A program made the position numbers and the translations under genes. Source: a virus (lineage: Duplodnaviria; Heunggongvirae; Uroviricota; Caudoviricetes). From it: DNA of 6,579 bases. The notes beneath the pieces were generated by a model. It had not been told where the DNA came from and ran no database searches. It saw nothing but the letters and a program-made list of their open reading frames with translations. This document shows positions 37-6,579 of this stretch, piece after piece. The DNA is taken from the IMG/VR virus record IMGVR_UViG_2541047595_000016; one strand, written 5' to 3'. Numbering within the stretch: position 1 is the stretch's first letter; every line of letters begins with the position of its first letter.

Positions 37-90
37 CCTGTTTACCTCTTTCTCAGGAAGTTTAGTCTCCAGGATTCCCGGGGCGGTTCA
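1..90 (-). mobile_element. Left end of an IS3-family insertion sequence (IS629/IS1203-like), partial; continues beyond the window start
   Basis: Minus strand 90->37 reads TGAACCGCCCCGGGAATCCTGGAGACTAAACTTCCTGAGAAAGAGGTAAACAGG, a 5'-TG... terminal inverted repeat that I recognise from memory as the IS629 end. It is followed by ATG at 36-34 opening MTKNTRFSPEVR, the IS629-type OrfA N-terminus. The element ends at TGA/TCA at position 90. The other end is outside the window, so target-site duplication cannot be checked. Confidence 0.75.
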
Positions 91-189
91 AACGTCTTGG
101 GCTACAAACCATGGTTGGCCATCGATAATGATGGAACGGATAGGGTTAACAGATTCAAATTTGAAGATGGCAGTTTGAGCATTAGCCAT
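91..189 (-). pseudogene. Bro-N-type phage antirepressor, N-terminal 33 codons, truncated by the IS insertion
   Basis: Minus-strand ATG at 189-187 preceded by GGAGA (204-200) with an 8-nt spacer. Translation MANAQTAIFKFESVNPIRSIIIDGQPWFVAQDV matches the Bro-N/antirepressor N-terminal pattern (F.F......R...IDG.PWFVA.DV). The next in-frame codon is the TGA formed by the IS terminus at 90-88. Confidence 0.65.
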
Positions 190-207
190 GGTGGTTATCT
201 CCACTTA

Positions 208-221
208 GTGATTTTAATCAC
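208..221. promoter_or_regulatory. 14-bp palindrome GTGATTTTAATCAC just upstream of the antirepressor RBS; candidate operator overlapping a -10-like TAAAAT
   Basis: Seen in sequence: 208-221 gtgattttaatcac has half-sites GTGATT/AATCAC. On the minus strand it contains TAAAAT about 13 nt upstream of the GGAGA Shine-Dalgarno. Regulatory role is inference only. Confidence 0.3.
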
Positions 222-345
222 CACCGCAACGCCAATTACTGGTGGTGAACTGGACAAGGTTGGCGTACCGGCCTAAGTGGTACCGGCGTCCTTTCGGACC
301 CCTGCCCAGCCCACCATAATTCGGATATAGCTGTGCTTAACGCAT

Positions 346-368
346 AAAAAAACCACGTCTGGCGTGGT
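346..368 (-). terminator. Rho-independent terminator for the minus-strand small gene
   Basis: Minus strand reads A-CCACG-CCAGA-CGTGG-TTTTTTT (stem 353-357/363-367, 5-nt loop, 7-T tract from 352-346). The run is on the correct side for minus-strand transcription arriving from the 505-777 gene. Confidence 0.6.
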
Positions 369-504
369 ATGCGCCACTTAGTAACCCGGGACGCCAATCC
401 CGGCACTGGATTTTGCCAGTGCCCGATTACTATGGCACAAGAGGAGTGCGATGTAAATTTACTGCAAAGGTAAATATAAGCACTCCTATTGGTAATTTCA
501 AATC

Positions 505-762
505 TTATCTGGTTTGTTTTCGTAATTGTTCGGCACAATAGTCGAGATGTGTTTGCAGATCCTGCATAGACATCTGTGAGCTGGTGACGTAGTTAATCAG
601 TGCAGTCAGTTCGGCAAGTGGGCCATCGACATTAAATCCATCCTTATCGAGATCCCGGAGTAATTTCATCAAGTGCGATCCCTCCACCAGTGACCTGACG
701 CCTCCCGGCGTGTGAATCCTTTCGGTAAATCCCTCTTCCAGTGGATAGTGATACTGCTGCAT
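505..762 (-). CDS. Small hypothetical protein (85 aa from ATG 762; 90 aa if ATG 777), apparently LexA/SOS-controlled; function unknown, possibly a small antirepressor-type regulator
   Basis: ORF-track ORF 505..777. The second ATG (762-760) has a well-spaced GGAGAAG Shine-Dalgarno; the first ATG (777-775) has none. A near-consensus LexA box lies at 785-800 immediately upstream. Stop TAA at 507-505, then a terminator at 346-368. I do not recognise the protein family by eye. Confidence 0.6.
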   Translation of the reverse strand: MQQYHYPLEEGFTERIHTPGGVRSLVEGSHLMKLLRDLDKDGFNVDGPLAELTALINYVTSSQMSMQDLQTHLDYCAEQLRKQTR

Positions 763-784
763 CTTAATCTTCTCCATGCAATAA

Positions 785-800
785 CTGTATATTTATACAG
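785..800. promoter_or_regulatory. LexA (SOS) box CTGT-N8-ACAG
   Basis: 783-802 = AACTGTATATTTATACAGTA versus the E. coli consensus TACTGTATATATATACAGTA (2 mismatches in 20; CTGT and ACAG intact with 8-bp AT-rich spacer). It contains -10-like hexamers on both strands (TATAAA on minus, TATATT on plus). It lies 7 bp from ATG 777 and 22 bp from ATG 762 of the minus-strand gene. Confidence 0.85.
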
Positions 801-958
801 TAGCAAATAATTTGTTTGCTATCCAGCACGTTTTGCAAATTACCTGAAAGGTAATATCTATTCATATTCACAGTCTTTCTATCCATATATGGTTTTTTGG
901 GTAATAGAATAACCAGATATGCGGCGCAACGGGTGCTGCGACTATCTGGAGATTTAAC

Positions 959-3421
959 ATGACGGTCTCAACCGAAGTTGACCACAACGAATACACAGGT
1001 AACGGCGTTACGACATCATTTCCGTATACCTTCCGTATTTTCAAAAAATCCGACCTGGTTGTTCAGGTGTCTGACCTTAACGGTAACGTTACAAAACTAG
1101 TGCTGGATGCTGGTTATACGGTAACAGGGGCGGGAACTTATAGTGGCGGTGCAGTGGTTCTTCCGTCGCCGCTTGCTGCTGGCTGGCGAATCACGATAGA
1201 GCGTGTGCTTGATGTGGTGCAGGAGACTGATCTTCGCAATCAGGGAAAATTTTTCCCCGAAGTTCATGAGGATGCATTTGACTACCTGACGATGCTGATC
1301 CAGCGATGTTTTGGGTGGTTCAGACGTGCATTGATGAAACCATCTTTGCTTGCAAAATATTACGATGCAAAGCAAAACAGAATATCTAACCTTGCCGATC
1401 CATCACTTGAGCAGGACGCTGTAAATAATCGCTCAATGCGTAATTATGTCGATGCTGCAATCGCCGGAGTTATTGGTGGTTTTGGTTGGTTTATTCAGTA
1501 TGGTTCTGGAGCGGTATACAGAACGTTCCAGGATAAGATGCGTGATGGTGTCAGCATTAAGGATTTTGGAGCTCAAAATGGAATCTTAAATGATAACAAG
1601 GATGCTTTTACAAAATCATTACATTCGTTTAGCAGTGTTTTTGTTCCGGAAGGGGTATTCAATACATCTTTAGTTTCTCTTTCACGTTGTGGCTTGTACG
1701 GAACAGGTGGGGGAACGATAAAACAGTATGACAGAGATGGTAATCATCTGGTTTTTAACATGCCCGATGGTGGCATGCTTAGTACGCTAACAATTATGGG
1801 AAATAAATCAGATGATAGTGTGCAGGGACACCAGGTGTCATTTTCAGGTGGCCATGATGTATCGGTTAAAAATATCAGATTTACAAATACGCGAGGACCA
1901 GGATTTAGCTTGATCGCTTATCCGGATAATGGTATTCCGTCAGGTTACATTGTTAGAGATATAAGAGGAGAGTATTTAGGGTTCGCAAATAATAAAAAAG
2001 CAGGTTGTGTGCTTTTTGATTCATCGCAAAATACGCTAATTGATGGTGTGATAGCCAGAAATTATCCTCAGTTTGGTGCAGTGGAACTTAAAACAGCAGC
2101 AAAATATAACATTGTCAGCAATGTTATTGGTGAAGAGTGTCAGCACGTTGTTTACAATGGAACTGAGACGGAAACTGCCCCAACGAATAATATCATTAGC
2201 AGTGTAATGGCTAACAACCCAAAATACGCCGCAGTAGTTGTTGGCAAGGGGACTGGTAACCTGATTTCGGATGTGCTGGTTGATTACTCTGAATCGGACG
2301 CAAAGCAGGCGCACGGCGTCACCGTTCAGGGAAATAATAATATTGCCAGTAATATTCTAATGACTGGGTGTGATGGGAAAAATGAATCAGGAGATCTGCA
2401 GACATCTACAACCATTCGTTTCTTAGATGCTGCACGCAGTAATTATGCGTCAATATTCCCCATGTATAGTTCTTCCGGCGTGGTTACCTTCGAGGAAGGG
2501 TGTATCAGGAACTTTGTTGAAATTAAACATCCGGGTGACAGAAATAATATTCTGAGTTCTGCATCAGCGGTGACTGGTATTTCCAGTATAGACGGCACTA
2601 CAAATAGCAATGTTGTTCACGTCCCTGCGCTTGGTCAGTACGTTGGGACTATGTCAGGGCGTTTTGAATGGTGGGTTAAATATTTTAACCTTGCTAACCA
2701 GACGCTTGTTTCTGCAGATAAATTCAGAATGCTTGCTGAAGGCGATGTATCTCTGGCTGTGGGAGGCGGTATAAGTTCGCAATTGAAATTATTCAATAGT
2801 GATAATACTAAAGGCACTATGTCGCTAATAAATGGAAATATTCGAATATCTACTGGAAATTCAGAATATATACAGTTTTCTGATTCAGCCATGACACCAT
2901 CGACAACGAATACTTATTCTCTTGGGTTGGCTGGTCGTGCATGGTCGGGGGGATTTACCCAGTCAGCGTTTACGGTGCTGTCCGATGCGCGTTTCAAGAC
3001 TGCTCCAGAGGTTATTGATGAGAAAATACTGGACGCATGGGAAAGAGTGGAATGGGTTTCATACCAGTACCTTGACAGGATCGAAGTGAAAGGTAAAGAC
3101 GGAGCAAGATGGCACTTTGGTGCAGTTGCGCAGCATGTTATCAGTGTATTTCAGAATGAAGGCATAGATGTGTCACGACTGGCATTTATCTGTTATGACA
3201 AGTGGAATGAGACCCCGGCAGAATACAGGGATGTGACGGAAGAAGAGCATTCTGCAGGAGTTTACCCACTTATACAGACAAAGGTTCTGGTACGCGAAGC
3301 CGTCGAGGCTGGTGAATGTTACGGTATCCGTTATGAAGAGGCTCTGATTCTGGAATCTGCGATGATGAGACGCAGGGTTAAAAAGCTGGAAGAGCAAGTT
3401 TTGCAATTAACAGGGAATTGA
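959..3421 (+). CDS. Phage tailspike/tail-fibre receptor-binding protein (820 aa): N-terminal virion-anchor domain, central right-handed beta-helix (probable polysaccharide depolymerase), C-terminal intramolecular chaperone/peptidase S74-type self-cleaving domain
   Basis: ATG 959 with GGAGA at 948-952 and a 6-nt spacer. Residues 1-120 (YTGNGVTTSFPYTFRIF...LVLDAGYTVT...) resemble the N-terminal anchor domain of T7 gp17-like fibres. Residues about 290-640 are Asn/Gly/Ser/Thr/Val-rich with asparagine-ladder runs typical of beta-helix tailspikes (NNIISSVMANN, QGNNNIASNILMTGCDG). Residues 675-680 SDARFK fit the S-D-x-R-x-K autoproteolysis motif (Ser nucleophile, Lys at +5) of endosialidase-type C-terminal chaperone domains. 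Stop TGA 3419-3421. Confidence 0.9.
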   Translation: MTVSTEVDHNEYTGNGVTTSFPYTFRIFKKSDLVVQVSDLNGNVTKLVLDAGYTVTGAGTYSGGAVVLPSPLAAGWRITIERVLDVVQETDLRNQGKFFPEVHEDAFDYLTMLIQRCFGWFRRALMKPSLLAKYYDAKQNRISNLADPSLEQDAVNNRSMRNYVDAAIAGVIGGFGWFIQYGSGAVYRTFQDKMRDGVSIKDFGAQNGILNDNKDAFTKSLHSFSSVFVPEGVFNTSLVSLSRCGLYGTGGGTIKQYDRDGNHLVFNMPDGGMLSTLTIMGNKSDDSVQGHQVSFSGGHDVSVKNIRFTNTRGPGFSLIAYPDNGIPSGYIVRDIRGEYLGFANNKKAGCVLFDSSQNTLIDGVIARNYPQFGAVELKTAAKYNIVSNVIGEECQHVVYNGTETETAPTNNIISSVMANNPKYAAVVVGKGTGNLISDVLVDYSESDAKQAHGVTVQGNNNIASNILMTGCDGKNESGDLQTSTTIRFLDAARSNYASIFPMYSSSGVVTFEEGCIRNFVEIKHPGDRNNILSSASAVTGISSIDGTTNSNVVHVPALGQYVGTMSGRFEWWVKYFNLANQTLVSADKFRMLAEGDVSLAVGGGISSQLKLFNSDNTKGTMSLINGNIRISTGNSEYIQFSDSAMTPSTTNTYSLGLAGRAWSGGFTQSAFTVLSDARFKTAPEVIDEKILDAWERVEWVSYQYLDRIEVKGKDGARWHFGAVAQHVISVFQNEGIDVSRLAFICYDKWNETPAEYRDVTEEEHSAGVYPLIQTKVLVREAVEAGECYGIRYEEALILESAMMRRRVKKLEEQVLQLTGN

Positions 3422-3493
3422 ACCGTAAATGGTGTGTTGTTGCGCGGTATACTTTTCCTGAAGCAGGGTGTTTGCAAATAAACGGGTTTCGTT

Positions 3494-3898
3494 ATGTCAT
3501 TCCAACTAACCAATGAAACTTCAAATCAGTGGCTTAGTGTTAGTTCTCTTGCTGCGGTTATTGCAGGTGTCCCTCCGGAGGTTGCTTTGGGGGCTTTGGC
3601 TGGGGCGGTAATTTTTGTTACCTCTGCGGTAGAGTATCCTATTCGTCGTCGTGTACTCTTGTCGATGCTTAGCTTTCTCTGCGGCCTTCTTTTTTATAAA
3701 CCAGCAGCATCAATTCTTATCGGCATAGCCAGCCTGATCCCTACCATCACGCAGGACTCTTTTGAAAAAGGGATTGTTTTCTCAGCTGGCGCATTCGTGT
3801 CAGCAATTGTTGCTGTGCGTATTGGTATATGGCTCTATCACCGTTCCGATAATCCACGCGAGTTAATTCCGGGGAGAAAAGACGATGGTAACGCATGA
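3494..3898 (+). CDS. Small multi-pass membrane protein (134 aa), first gene of the lysis cassette; holin or antiholin candidate
   Basis: Three to four hydrophobic segments (about 30-46, 54-68, 70-85, 93-115) and a charged C-terminal tail ([19 protein letters not shown]). Its stop overlaps the next gene's start (ATGGTAACGCATGA). Weak Shine-Dalgarno at ATG 3494; an internal TTG at 3587 has a better GGAGG site. Function is from context only. Confidence 0.55.
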   Translation: MSFQLTNETSNQWLSVSSLAAVIAGVPPEVALGALAGAVIFVTSAVEYPIRRRVLLSMLSFLCGLLFYKPAASILIGIASLIPTITQDSFEKGIVFSAGAFVSAIVAVRIGIWLYHRSDNPRELIPGRKDDGNA

Positions 3899-4193
3899 GT
3901 TTTTTTTGCTTATCACCAATGCAGTTATTTGTACTGGCATAGCAATTCGCGTTGTCACATTCCGGCGTAACGGATCTCAACATCGAAGATTGGGAGGGTG
4001 GCTTGCTTATTTCCTTATTGTTGCTGCGGCAAGTATTCCTGTTCGTGTCGTCTATGCAATCTGGTTACGCACGCCAATGGCTGTGGATTTATCTGAGGTC
4101 ATTATCAACGCTGTCATGCTGGCTGCGGTTATTAAAACGCGCGGTAACGTCGTTCAAATTTTTAAAGTATCGAGGTCTAAACATGGAGATTAA
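3885..4193 (+). CDS. Small three-TM membrane protein (102 aa), putative holin
   Basis: ATG 3885 preceded by GGGGAGA with a 7-nt spacer. Three hydrophobic helices (about 6-24, 36-61, 67-83) and a basic C-terminus ([19 protein letters not shown]). Its 3' end overlaps the endolysin start by 11 nt, implying translational coupling. Confidence 0.6.
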
Positions 4194-4812
4194 ACAATTC
4201 CAGCGAGCTGCTGGTATCAGCGAGGCACTGGCCGCACGCTGGATCTCGCATATAACTTCTGCGATGAAAGAGTTTGGTATCAGCAAACCCGAAGATCAGG
4301 CAATGTTTATTGCTCAGGTCGGGCATGAGTCTGGTGGCTTCAACCGGTTGCAGGAAAATTTCAACTACAGCGTCACCGGACTGGCTAACTTCGTTCGGGC
4401 TGGGCGTCTCACTCAGGGGCAGGCTAATGCACTGGGGCGCCGTGCTGGTGAACCACCATTGCCACTTGAGCGCCAGCGCGCGATCGCAAATCTGGTATAC
4501 AGCAAACGCATGGGGAACAATGCCCCTGGTGATGGCTGGAATTACCGAGGGCGCGGACTTATCCAGATTACCGGTTTGAATAACTATCGTGATTGCGGAA
4601 ACGGTCTGAAGGTTGACCTGCTGGAGAGCCCTGAACTGCTGGCGCAGGACGAATATGCGGCTCGTAGCGCGGCGTGGTTCTTCGCCAGCAAAGGATGCAT
4701 GAAGTATACCGGCGATATTGCACGTGTAACTCTGATTATCAATGGTGGCCGGAACGGCATCGACGACCGGCGAGCGCGGTACATCACTGCCAGTAAGGTG
4801 CTGGCGGTATGA
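4183..4812 (+). CDS. Endolysin, glycoside hydrolase family 19 (chitinase-class-I-like lysozyme), 209 aa
   Basis: ATG 4183 with GAGG at 4172-4175. GH19 motifs VGHESGGF and [15 protein letters not shown]. The two putative catalytic Glu fall at residues 49 and 58 by my count, which matches my memory of the numbering reported for the Salmonella phage SPN1S GH19 endolysin. N-terminus is not hydrophobic, so no SAR signal. The ORF-track start at 3952 is a TTG extension through the upstream gene and is not used. Confidence 0.9.
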
Positions 4813-5291
4813 TCTGGGCATTCGTAAAAGCATACTGGAAACAGTTGCTTATCGTGGCAGTGCTTGCTGTTCTGGTCATATCAGGAGTGGTTGCCTGGAA
4901 TATACACGGCAGTCGCCAGTACGATGCCGGGTATGCGCAGGCGGAAGAAGACCGCAAAGCCGAAGAAGACAAAGTTCGTCAGTACTACGAACAGGAGAAA
5001 GTGGCCAATGAACGTGAAGCTCAGCAGAGGATCGACCAGGCGCGCAATGATGCTCTTGATGCTGCCGCTCGCGCTGGCCGGTTGCAGCAACAACTCTTTG
5101 CCATCCGTGAGCAGCTCAGGCAGTATAACGCCATTGTCGGCGCTGGGACGTCAGCCGCAGACACCGGAGTTTTGCTTGCCGACGTGCTCAGCAAATCTCT
5201 CGAGAGAAACAGACAACTGGCAGAGTATGCTGACCGGGCAGCCGAAGCCGGAAGAGTCTGCGAAAAACAGTACGACACACTGACCAGATAG
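4809..5291 (+). CDS. Rz-type i-spanin (inner-membrane spanin subunit), 160 aa
   Basis: ATG overlaps the endolysin stop (ATGA at 4809-4812). N-terminal TM helix ([18 protein letters not shown]) followed by a long charged, Ala/Gln/Glu/Arg-rich predicted coiled-coil periplasmic domain with a single C-terminal Cys. Position right after the endolysin. Confidence 0.85.
5047..5283 (+). CDS. Rz1-type o-spanin (outer-membrane lipoprotein), 78 aa, wholly embedded in the +1 frame of the i-spanin gene
   Basis: ATGATG at 5047-5052 opens [13 protein letters not shown] with lipobox LAGC and Ser at +2 (outer-membrane sorting). The mature part is Pro/Ser-rich and short with Cys residues, typical of o-spanins. 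The ORF-track ORF 4864..5283 is the same frame over-extended upstream. Confidence 0.8.
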   Translation: MMLLMLPLALAGCSNNSLPSVSSSGSITPLSALGRQPQTPEFCLPTCSANLSRETDNWQSMLTGQPKPEESAKNSTTH

Positions 5292-5372
5292 CATGGCATT
5301 TTTCATGGTACTGATTTCCGGTGACGGTATATAAAACGGTACGAGAAAAATTCATCTTTGGAAAAATGTTAT

Positions 5373-5409
5373 CACTCAATTAGTTATGGTGTCCGTAAAT
5401 AATTGAGTG
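5373..5409. repeat. Perfect 10-bp inverted repeat (CACTCAATTA ... TAATTGAGTG) with 17-bp spacer, spanning the proposed phage-host junction
   Basis: Seen in sequence: 5373-5382 cactcaatta and 5400-5409 taattgagtg are exact reverse complements. The right arm overlaps the ATTGAGTGG codons of the GuaA-like C-terminus. Confidence 0.5.
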
Positions 5410-5416
5410 GGAATGA
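5402..5416 (+). other. guaA: Orphan 3' terminus of guaA (GMP synthase) coding sequence, ...IEWE-stop; candidate attR core region
   Basis: ATT GAG TGG GAA TGA = I-E-W-E-stop. GMP synthase ends ...PPATIEWE (from memory). The frame upstream is closed by TAA at 5396-5398 and no GuaA body is present; phage lysis genes are there instead. Fits a prophage integrated at the 3' end of guaA. Confidence 0.5.
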
Positions 5417-5440
5417 TTTGACCCTGCACTATGAATGAAC

Positions 5441-5470
5441 AAAACCCTCTGTTACTACAGAGGGTTTTTT
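5441..5470. terminator. Bidirectional Rho-independent terminator between the convergent lysis operon/guaA remnant and the minus-strand host genes
   Basis: AAAA-ACCCTCTGT-tact-ACAGAGGGT-TTTTTT: stem 5443-5452 pairs with 5457-5466 (GC-rich core of 7 bp), 4-nt loop, T-tract 5465-5470 on plus strand; a weaker T-rich run follows on the minus strand. Confidence 0.75.
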
Positions 5471-5508
5471 ATCTTCAAGAATTATAGGATTGAAGTTACT
5501 AACATCGA

Positions 5509-6048
5509 TTAATTAAACCAGCTGTCCGATTTGTTCTCTTCTGCTTTGCCCACGCTTTTCATCAGATCGCGACCGCCTTCAGTCATATTTCTGTTGGCGT
5601 CAGCTTCAGATTGCACCACATCGGTTTGCGCAGCTTTGTGCTTCAGTTCCTGATCGATAAATTCGTTTTCTCGCTTAACGCGGGCTTCTTCTTTCGCCAG
5701 CGCCAGTTTTTGTTTCTGAATCTCTAAGCTGCGTAGCTCATCTTCATAACTTTGATCGCGTTTTTTGTCCGCAGAGGCTTCGGCGTCCAGTTTATCCTGA
5801 CGAGCTTTCTTATTTGCCGCTGCCGTTGCCGCTCTTTTGTTAGCGGCGGCCTGGGCATTTGCGCGACGTTGCTTCTCTTGCTGGATTTCCCTGTTGCGCT
5901 CCGCGACCCATTCGTCATGCTGCCTTTGCTCTTCATTTTTACCTTGCTGTTCCGCTTCTGCGACAGCAGAGAGTTGATCCTGCAATGATGAGGCGATAGC
6001 CGGATAGCTTAAGGAGGCTAAGATGGCGCAAAGAAAAACTTTCTTCAT
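5509..6048 (-). CDS. yfgI: Secreted (Sec signal peptide) Lys/Arg/Glu/Gln-rich coiled-coil periplasmic protein, 179 aa; host gene, tentatively YfgI
   Basis: ATG 6048-6046 with AGGAGGAG Shine-Dalgarno. Signal peptide MKKVFLCAILASLSYPAIA then an A-x-A cleavage site. The mature protein is highly charged and low-complexity (QRRANAQAAANKRAATAAANKKARQDK...). The name rests on my memory that E. coli yfgI encodes a 179-aa protein and lies beside guaA with yfgH; the sequence itself was not verified. Confidence 0.55.
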   Translation of the reverse strand: MKKVFLCAILASLSYPAIASSLQDQLSAVAEAEQQGKNEEQRQHDEWVAERNREIQQEKQRRANAQAAANKRAATAAANKKARQDKLDAEASADKKRDQSYEDELRSLEIQKQKLALAKEEARVKRENEFIDQELKHKAAQTDVVQSEADANRNMTEGGRDLMKSVGKAEENKSDSWFN

Positions 6049-6063
6049 GACTCCTCCTGATTA

Positions 6064-6579
6064 TTAGCTCTTTTCAGGACATTTGGTATTTGGCTGAATA
6101 CGCGTTTCGTTATACGTCGTGGTAATAACAACGGCTAAACCTGTCGTAAACTGGCACTCTTTACCCACCTGGGTAGAGGTATACACTTTGGTGCCTTCCT
6201 TATAGGTTAAAGAAACACCTTCCACTAAGGTTTTATCATTCACCATAGAACCCGCTGCCGCGCCTACAGCTCCGCCGCCAACTGCACCTGCCGTCGTTCC
6301 GGAATTGCTGCCAGACCCGACGTTGTGGCCGATAACACCGCCAGCGACTGCGCCAATAAGCGCGCCGAAGGCTTGTGCGTTCCGTTTATTTTGGGAGTTG
6401 TCTACGGCAACTTTTGCGGGAAGAATGGAAATAATATTAACGGTTTTAGTTTCTTGTTTGGTATTCAGTTGATCGGTTTGATAAACATCGGCAGCATGAT
6501 CGTCAGCATTTGACTGGCATCCTGCCAGAGTGAATGACGCTAACATTGCCACAGGCAGAAGACATTTTTTAAATTTCAT
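6064..6579 (-). CDS. yfgH: Glycine-zipper outer-membrane lipoprotein (SlyB/Pcp-like), 171 aa as read; host gene, tentatively YfgH
   Basis: ATG at 6579-6577, exactly at the window edge (RBS not visible; the true start could be one or more codons further upstream). Signal peptide with lipobox LAGC and Gln at +2. Gly/Ala-rich glycine-zipper segment (FGALIGAVAGGVIGHNVGSG...AGAVGGGAVGAAAGS). Lies 15 bp upstream of the 5509-6048 gene, so probably an operon. The name is from memory of the K-12 yfgH-yfgI-guaA neighbourhood; unverified. Confidence 0.5.
   Translation of the reverse strand: MKFKKCLLPVAMLASFTLAGCQSNADDHAADVYQTDQLNTKQETKTVNIISILPAKVAVDNSQNKRNAQAFGALIGAVAGGVIGHNVGSGSNSGTTAGAVGGGAVGAAAGSMVNDKTLVEGVSLTYKEGTKVYTSTQVGKECQFTTGLAVVITTTYNETRIQPNTKCPEKS

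Follow-up and report, generated by a model that had tools for sequence, protein, structure and literature searches.

A small gene behind a LexA box in an epsilon15/phiV10-like prophage is very probably ant, the antirepressor gene of the known LexA-Ant-Rep switch

The small minus-strand gene at positions 505-762 of the window (the whole stretch of DNA that was analysed, 6,579 nucleotides in length) is very probably ant, the SOS-controlled antirepressor gene of an epsilon15/phiV10-like (Uetakevirus) prophage, and its product would work through a cascade that runs from LexA via Ant to the repressor Rep. This system is already known, as the published LexA-Ant-Rep antirepression switch, and the main finding requires no new biology. 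It is the combination of a LexA box, orthology to Ant, synteny and a Rep protein that lacks the S24 peptidase domain in a close relative that points to this switch. The box, the intact gene, its orthology, the synteny, the conservation of the box, and the Rep homologue and operators in the relative were all established directly in the present analysis.

The open reading frame on the minus strand spans positions 505-777 and would yield a protein of 90 amino acids if the in-frame ATG at 777 were used. This upstream ATG is probably not the start codon. A Shine-Dalgarno sequence, GGAG, can be read on the minus strand at 772-775, 9 nt 5' of the ATG at 762, and it is invariant in an alignment of the ant-tailspike intergenic region from ten phages, namely the window itself, phiV10, SPC32H, SPC32N, epsilon15, Tyrion, BUCT554 and three Klebsiella phages (alignment A1). 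Furthermore, phiV10, SPC32H and epsilon15 use the ATG equivalent to 762 as the start codon, and in these three phages the ATG further upstream is not in frame. The gene is therefore taken to occupy 505-762 and to encode 85 amino acids, and the minus-strand gene for a protein of 85-90 residues that had been noticed in a sequence-only reading of this DNA is confirmed, with the shorter length favoured.

A database search with the 85-aa product, which the same reading had proposed, settled the identity of the protein. In a phmmer search of the PDB sequences, it matched chain E of entry 5D50, "Anti-repressor protein", with an E-value of 1.6e-47, the 83 residues from 2 to 84 being aligned without a gap. 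A tblastn comparison shows 89% identity to the gene annotated as ant in the Salmonella phages SPC32H and SPC32N, and the protein belongs to phrog_450 in PHROGs (E-value 3.5e-48); across hosts, the identity among the Ant proteins ranges from 60% to 98%. Entry 5D50, along with 5D4Z, reportedly belongs to the Ant-Rep structure paper that Kim et al. published in PNAS in 2016 (113:E2480). The general-purpose domain collections are silent on this protein: the Pfam search returned only a sub-threshold match to DUF724 (17.4 bits against a cut-off of 38.4), which was dismissed as noise, and the NCBIfam search returned zero matches. The lack of a model in Pfam and NCBIfam accounts both for the RefSeq name of the product, 'hypothetical', and for the initial impression that it had no obvious family, which has to be given up now that the product proves closely homologous to an antirepressor with a name and a solved structure.

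The same results bear on the suggestion that the gene encodes an SOS-induced toxin or moron unrelated to immunity, that is, a protein aimed at the host that might inhibit growth or serve in lysogenic conversion. A small, apparently LexA-controlled gene in an accessory position and outside any Pfam or NCBIfam family would be in keeping with such a role, but the product is a close homologue of an antirepressor that was solved in complex with its repressor, proteins assigned to the antirepressors by PHROGs end in the same domain, and the sequence of the product contains no hydrophobic or membrane segment. A toxin or moron thus finds no support and is extremely improbable, leaving the antirepressor as the preferred reading.

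Upstream of the gene, motif and mismatch scans together with the alignment locate a LexA (SOS) box, a palindrome to which no strand is assigned, with a 16-bp core at 785-800 (CTGTATATTTATACAG, or TACTGTATAAATATACAGTT on the ant strand) inside a 20-mer at 783-802. The core lies 23-38 nt 5' of the ant ATG at 762. CTGT-N8-ACAG occurs a single time in the 6,579 nt of the window, at 785-800, compared with an expectation of 0.09 and with at least one occurrence in 18 of 200 shuffles; the 20-mer, AACTGTATATTTATACAGTA, has 2 mismatches to TACTGTATATATATACAGTA, a match with three or fewer mismatches was obtained in none of the 200 shuffles, and both half-sites, CTGT and ACAG, are perfect. The SOS box with two mismatches that had been reported at 785-800 therefore stands, but these coordinates are those of the 16-bp core, and the 20-mer that was quoted occupies 783-802.

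The informative test of the conservation of the box is the ten-phage alignment. TACTGT and ATACAGT are the same in all six wild-type sequences from E. coli, Salmonella and Enterobacter, whereas the spacer differs at five of its eight positions and the flanks over much of their length. On the gene strand, the box reads TACTGTATAAATATACAGTT in the window, TACTGTGTATTTATACAGTT in phiV10, TACTGTATGTTTATACAGTG in SPC32H, TACTGTATGTTTATACAGTA in epsilon15, TACTGTATAAGCATACAGTG in Tyrion and TACTGTACATATATACAGTG in BUCT554; in the Klebsiella-type relatives, it is TATATGTATATATATACAGTA, that is, ATGT-N8-ACAG, at an unchanged distance from the ATG. Of 80 close relatives in IMG/VR, 77 keep the box, with a distance of 37-38 nt to the ATG; the remaining three are two contig ends and one insertion of an IS. 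The two IMG/VR scans, with 399 and 373 relatives, add little independent support for the conservation of the box because most of these relatives are nearly identical. The ant box is also the only AT-rich CTGT-N8-ACAG in the entire SPC32H genome and, likewise, in the entire intact E. coli prophage. Judging from the match to the consensus and from the half-sites that are conserved against a varying background, the palindrome at 783-802 is, as a sequence element, a real LexA box.

A natural variant of the box is available in SPC32N, which differs from SPC32H by one base in the box, a C-to-A change in the ACAG half-site, as the alignment shows, and by a second difference, a few codons into the tailspike gene. 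Kim and Ryu reportedly described SPC32N in 2013 as SPC32H with two nucleotide changes, of which one abolishes the LexA site, with constitutive synthesis of Ant as the result. The two differences seen here are presumably the same two that are mentioned in the abstract of that report.

The box is also a site of insertion. In E. coli TUM13064, ISEc53, an element of the ISL3 family that carries a passenger gene of the ClbS/DfsB family, lies within the 8-bp spacer of the ant LexA box, with the target duplication ATAAATAT, and the end of ISEc53 (...GGGGAAGACCC) is found at the same position of the box in one E. coli-type and three Klebsiella-type contigs of IMG/VR.

A scan with the consensus promoter called no sigma-70 promoter at the box. 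A candidate ant promoter can nevertheless be proposed at 797-825 on the minus strand, with the -35 hexamer TGGATA at 825-820, a 17-nt spacer and the -10 hexamer TACTGT at 802-797, the latter coinciding with bases 1-6 of the LexA 20-mer. Both hexamers are within conserved blocks of alignment A1. This layout is preferred by its likeness to the tum promoter p95 of phage 186, in which the annotated -10 is TACTGT and lies inside the LexA box. Transcription from TGGATA-17-TACTGT would begin within the box, at about position 790, and the mRNA would contain the GGAG. A recA-like layout, with TTGCTA at 806-801 as the -35 hexamer and TATTGC at 783-778 as the -10 hexamer, was considered as well and rejected because the start of transcription would fall at or beyond the conserved GGAG. 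The overlap of the LexA box with the -10 region of the gene, as stated in the sequence-only reading, is plausible on this analogy. In SPC32H, the LexA site reportedly overlaps the ant promoter, according to Kim and Ryu.

Between the candidate ant promoter and the tailspike gene, at 839-855 (no strand assigned), there is an inverted repeat of the Rep-operator type, ATTACCTGAAAGGTAAT, which is a perfect match to ATTACC-N5-GGTAAT and the one perfect copy in the window; fewer than three matches were found in each of 200 shuffles. In epsilon15, the same motif carries the annotation of a repressor binding site; SPC32H has 12 copies of it and the intact E. coli prophage 10, with matching locations that include both sides of rep. 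The proximity of this operator, 38 bp from the box, would suit an arrangement in which LexA does not act at the palindrome at all and ant is controlled by Rep through the nearby operator or is expressed constitutively at a low level, and so would the replacement of CTGT by ATGT in one half-site of the Klebsiella relatives and the failure of the promoter scan to call a promoter at the box. However, the 20-mer departs from the consensus at two positions alone and has both CTGT and ACAG intact, the half-sites are kept while their surroundings vary, and SPC32N differs from SPC32H in the box region by a single base that falls precisely in ACAG, so that an ant gene independent of LexA is barely credible and control of ant by LexA remains the preferred explanation.

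The window covers the right-hand end of a podovirus prophage of the epsilon15/phiV10 type, genus Uetakevirus, and runs on into the adjoining chromosome. The tailspike gene, identified from the list of open reading frames and by Pfam and PHROGs searches, spans 959-3421 on the plus strand and is divergent from ant; also on the plus strand, the same searches identify two holins, a family-19 endolysin and an Rz-like spanin, and from about position 5500 onward, the genes yfgI and yfgH are chromosomal, the site of the prophage being between guaA and yfgI. Over bases 198-1000, identity is 90-97% with phages HEMP4, phiv142-3 and phiV10, falling to 76-78% with Enterobacter phage Tyrion and with Salmonella phages in the epsilon15/SPN1S group. 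The divergent orientation of ant and the tailspike gene in the window recurs in phiV10, SPC32H, epsilon15, Tyrion, BUCT554 and Klebsiella phages, and ant is located between the injection and structural genes and the tailspike gene, far from rep, as is characteristic of this family of switches. The window shares 98.7% identity with the complete prophage that E. coli 4/1-1 carries between guaA and yfgI, in which rep is about 28 kb from ant, in agreement with the earlier statement that the small gene is far from any repressor gene.

The state of the prophage is relevant to a further alternative. One contig from an E. coli-type assembly, found by an exact-protein look-up of the tailspike, is 100% identical to positions 89-6579 of the window, lacks the IS and has all these genes intact, which contradicts, as far as the window extends, the impression that the surrounding prophage looks degraded: IS629 is the sole exception. 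It could be imagined that ant is an orphan, trans-acting antirepressor gene, kept in a resident prophage made defective by IS629 and perhaps by lesions outside the window, the product of which is an SOS-induced factor directed against Rep-like repressors of other prophages. The gene adjoining ant is indeed disrupted by IS629, Ant is far better conserved across hosts than Rep (60-98% compared with 42%), as might be expected of a module directed at a conserved repressor domain, and for the Gifsy and Fels-2 prophages, cross-induction through antirepressors has been documented (PMC3121763, PMC7380047). Nonetheless, the rest of the window is intact and fully identical to the uninterrupted relative, with no decay found, and the IS has struck a separate accessory gene, sparing ant and the ant promoter, so that an orphan role appears unlikely compared with that of an antirepressor acting in its own prophage. 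Action of Ant in trans on other prophages, as raised in the sequence-only reading, is conceivable.

The repressor itself is known from the intact relative. At the rep position, E. coli 4/1-1 encodes a Rep-type protein of 194 aa with a helix-turn-helix, which is 42% identical to SPC32H Rep and matches PDB 5D50_A, 'Repressor', with an E-value of 4e-42; the domain search identifies HTH_3 in this protein and no Peptidase_S24 domain. The rep gene falls outside the window and is seen in this 98.7%-identical relative alone, and we assume that the prophage in the window uses a Rep-type repressor and that the E. coli-lineage Rep (WP_000836290.1), with its 42% identity to the Salmonella protein, would be bound by the Ant encoded in the window. 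The match to 5D50_E, the 89% identity to SPC32H ant, the conserved box and the HTH-only Rep of the relative all speak for the antirepressor that had been proposed for this locus, and the proposed type of switch, in which a small LexA-repressed antirepressor gene outside the immunity region acts on an uncleaved repressor, corresponds to what has been published for the orthologous Ant of SPC32H.

Kim and Ryu are said to have reported in J Virol in 2013 (87:11775) that the Rep of SPC32H is not cleaved in the SOS response, that the small protein Ant inactivates Rep, and that LexA represses ant. LexA control and the Ant-Rep interaction are carried over to the window from the literature on this Salmonella orthologue and would hold here by analogy, and the function of this copy of ant in its host is presumed on the same grounds. 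In an undamaged cell, a dimer of the host LexA would occupy 783-802, over the ant promoter, and keep ant off. DNA damage would trigger the RecA-stimulated self-cleavage of LexA and hence transcription of ant. Ant, a tetramer in the SPC32H structure, would then bind the C-terminal tetramerisation domain of Rep, a protein predicted to have two HTH domains and no self-cleaving peptidase domain, and this binding would split the DNA-binding Rep tetramer into dimers. Rep would be lost from the ATTACC-N5-GGTAAT operators, and the lytic genes would be expressed. The individual steps have counterparts in the literature: one review (PMC7380047), which cites Kim and Ryu 2013, describes how self-cleavage of LexA allows an antirepressor to be made, by which the repressor is then inhibited, another (PMC9638917) describes an Ant tetramer that binds two Rep dimers and breaks the Rep tetramer, and PMC9986798 assigns both tetramerisation and Ant binding to the C-terminal domain of Rep.

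The importance of the identification is chiefly for annotation, in that a protein named 'hypothetical' in RefSeq and without a Pfam or NCBIfam model would yet be an SOS trigger, namely that of a common prophage family of E. coli, Salmonella, Klebsiella and Enterobacter (the 399 and 373 relatives in the two IMG/VR scans). Recognising ant implies that such prophages would be induced via LexA and an antirepressor, not via cleavage of the repressor, and lesions in the box or in ant, for example, the ISEc53 insertions, should alter their inducibility.

Downstream of ant, the window contains the remains of a second gene. Positions 1-88 on the minus strand are the end of an IS629, with the start of its orfA (MTKNTRFSPEVR; the database match is 96.8% over 1-94), an element that runs past the window, and the uninterrupted relatives align from base 89 onward only. 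The remnant of a Bro-N antirepressor-like gene follows at 89-189 on the minus strand, with 33 codons and then a stop inside the IS. The intact version in relatives encodes a protein of 236 aa that begins with Bro-N and ends in an Ant-like domain, so that the IS-disrupted Bro-N antirepressor recognised in the sequence-only reading is upheld.

According to a comparison with Rfam, the 310 bp that separate ant from the Bro-N gene hold an RNA cassette and are not a plain spacer; all elements of the cassette are on the minus strand. Downstream of ant, there is an isrK-like RNA with a terminator hairpin at 346-422 (67.7 bits, with a gathering score of 50), overlapped by a c4-a1b1 target element at 383-435 whose 44.1 bits are just under the gathering score of 46.7; a sequence scan places a terminator-like hairpin at 352-368. 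A C4-type antisense RNA of the P1/P7 immI kind (RF01695) spans 238-321, with 66 bits compared with a gathering score of 45 and an E-value of 1.4e-11. The targets complementary to C4 are a1, CUAAGUGG, at 374-381, and b1, UUGGCGU, at 391-397. A second CUAAGUGG/UUGGCGU pair, at 201-208 and 229-235, lies over the Bro-N ribosome-binding site, with 201-208 overlapping the Bro-N Shine-Dalgarno sequence at 199-202. The unpaired loop of C4, CCACUUAG, complements CUAAGUGG, and the C4 linker ACGCCAA complements UUGGCGU. The antirepressor gene downstream of C4 is intact in relatives and reduced in the window to the 33 codons that precede IS629.

The same leader of about 280 bp is found upstream of differing cassette genes in related prophages. 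The proteins encoded by these genes have varied N-termini (Bro-N, ORF6N or AntA) and share a nearly identical C-terminal domain of about 82 aa that is homologous to Ant (42% identity, BLASTP E-value 1e-15; phrog_450, E-value about 5e-36). The presence of an Ant-like domain at the end of the cassette proteins means that this lineage has the Ant domain twice, under LexA and under the C4 RNA. In the window, IS629 has removed the second copy of the domain.

It is possible, although we hold it only tentatively and consider it more doubtful than not, that in the branch found in E. coli, Enterobacter and Klebsiella, the Rep-binding Ant domain is deployed twice side by side, as a LexA-gated, free Ant of 85 aa and as the C4-RNA-gated C-terminus of exchangeable Bro-N, ORF6N or AntA fusions, and that insertion sequences repeatedly remove one or the other input. 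If so, IS629 in the Bro-N gene or ISEc53 in the box would reprogramme or lock the inducibility of the prophage. Leaving aside the original SPC32H papers, we know of no earlier description of such a dual LexA/C4 arrangement. The side observations, namely the C4 cassette, the second Ant-like domain and the IS in the box, are the sole parts of this analysis that may be new.

Among the known systems, the immI region of P1/P7, with its c4 antisense RNA, icd and ant1/2 (PMC8198154), and the isrK-anrP locus of Gifsy-1 (IsrK; PMC4825925) are relevant to the Bro-N neighbour and not to ant. The cassette at 435-187 on the minus strand resembles P1 immI in the order of its elements, from the a1/b1 targets to the C4 RNA, the a2/b2 targets over a ribosome-binding site and an antirepressor-type gene. 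It differs from immI in that the last gene joins Bro-N (or, in its place, ORF6N or AntA) to an Ant-like domain, compared with icd plus ant1/2 in P1, and in that the cassette belongs to a podovirus prophage and, in the window, is truncated by IS629.

Closer in logic to ant itself are Tum of coliphage 186, Tum of Fels-2 and the Gifsy antirepressors GfoA and GfhA, in which the repressor is likewise uncleaved and a small LexA-repressed antirepressor gene is located outside the immunity region. The likeness extends to the LexA box of the 186 promoter p95, TACTGTATGTTTATACAGTA, which encloses the annotated -10 TACTGT and is identical to the ant box of epsilon15. These systems, however, belong to other phage groups and act on other repressor families, and homology of Ant to Tum was rejected (BLASTP E-value 0.28 over 46 residues).

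The closest counterpart is the Ant switch of SPC32H. The two share the protein family (89% identity; 5D50_E, E-value 1.6e-47), the size of the protein, the distance of the LexA box from the start codon, the divergence of ant from the tailspike gene and the genus Uetakevirus and, as seen in the intact E. coli relative, the type of Rep and the operator motif. They differ in the host, which is E. coli-like for the window and Salmonella for SPC32H, in the cognate Rep, which is just 42% identical in the E. coli lineage, and in the spacer of the box, ATAAATAT in the window compared with ATGTTTAT in SPC32H. Moreover, SPC32H is devoid of the C4-RNA-gated second gene with an Ant-like domain that the E. 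coli lineage has directly downstream of ant. With all the defining features found at the sequence level, rep being seen in the relative only, the ant gene in the window is, as judged from these features, a member of the SPC32H Ant family.

The variable proteins encoded downstream of ant in relatives of this prophage differ at the N-terminus, which is of the Bro-N, ORF6N or AntA type, and share a nearly identical C-terminal domain, which is a homologue of the small Ant protein (42% identity; E-value of about 5e-36 for the phrog_450 family). This domain is found at L017:7465-7719 in the intact E. coli prophage and at L011:8014-8265 and L011:6646-6903 in another relative. Because all these cassette proteins have the Ant-like C-terminus in common, the lineage encodes the Ant domain twice, with each copy under different control. 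In the window, the cassette gene is truncated, with a remnant at 89-189. Positions 1-94 comprise an end of IS629 with the start of orfA on the minus strand, and homology to the uninterrupted relatives starts at base 89, which places the insertion in the Bro-N gene just past its codon 33; this junction was found in no complete E. coli genome among the matches listed.

The Klebsiella-type ant genes are preceded, 36 nt upstream, by TATATGTATATATATACAGTA (ATGT-N8-ACAG), a putative LexA site in which the canonical CTGT half-site is replaced, and this form is consistent across 61 loci (L098-L166). In E. coli TUM13064, ISEc53, an ISL3-family element that carries a passenger gene of the ClbS/DfsB family, interrupts the LexA box of ant precisely within its AT-rich 8-bp spacer (L179:746-2720), with the target duplication ATAAATAT, and cuts ant off from its candidate promoter. 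An ISEc53 end occupies the same position in four additional contigs (L028, L108, L113 and L121), and the presence of the same end at the same place in both E. coli-type and Klebsiella-type contigs suggests that the element entered the LexA box repeatedly, by independent insertions. The perfect inverted repeat ATTACCTGAAAGGTAAT (839-855) belongs to a genome-wide motif that is annotated in epsilon15 as a repressor site, with 10-12 copies per phage genome in conserved places (SPC32H and the intact E. coli prophage compared genome-wide). The motif is kept despite an identity of only 42% between the Rep proteins of the E. coli phages and those of the Salmonella phages.

Just past the ant stop codon, a long inverted repeat, AGGAGTGC...GCACTCCT (446-491, minus strand), that encloses a smaller palindrome, ATTTAC-N7-GTAAAT, was identified by eye. 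Two promoter-like sites (501-473 and 457-429) overlap this repeat, which may serve the C4/Bro-N cassette as its promoter and operator. No obvious intrinsic terminator separates ant from the cassette, and transcription from the LexA-controlled promoter could therefore possibly read through into it.

Between ant and the Bro-N gene lies what is, by its sequence features, an antisense-RNA cassette (238-435, minus strand), with matches, all on the minus strand, to C4 antisense RNA (238-321), isrK (346-422) and c4-a1b1 (383-435). The predicted downstream targets of C4 are located at 201-208 and 229-235 (minus strand); sequence comparison within the window reveals two target pairs complementary to the C4 loops, one pair lying over the ribosome-binding site of the Bro-N gene. 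The same leader, of ∼280 bp, precedes the AntA- and ORF6N-type genes of related prophages. In its layout, this C4-RNA cassette resembles the immI region of phage P1.
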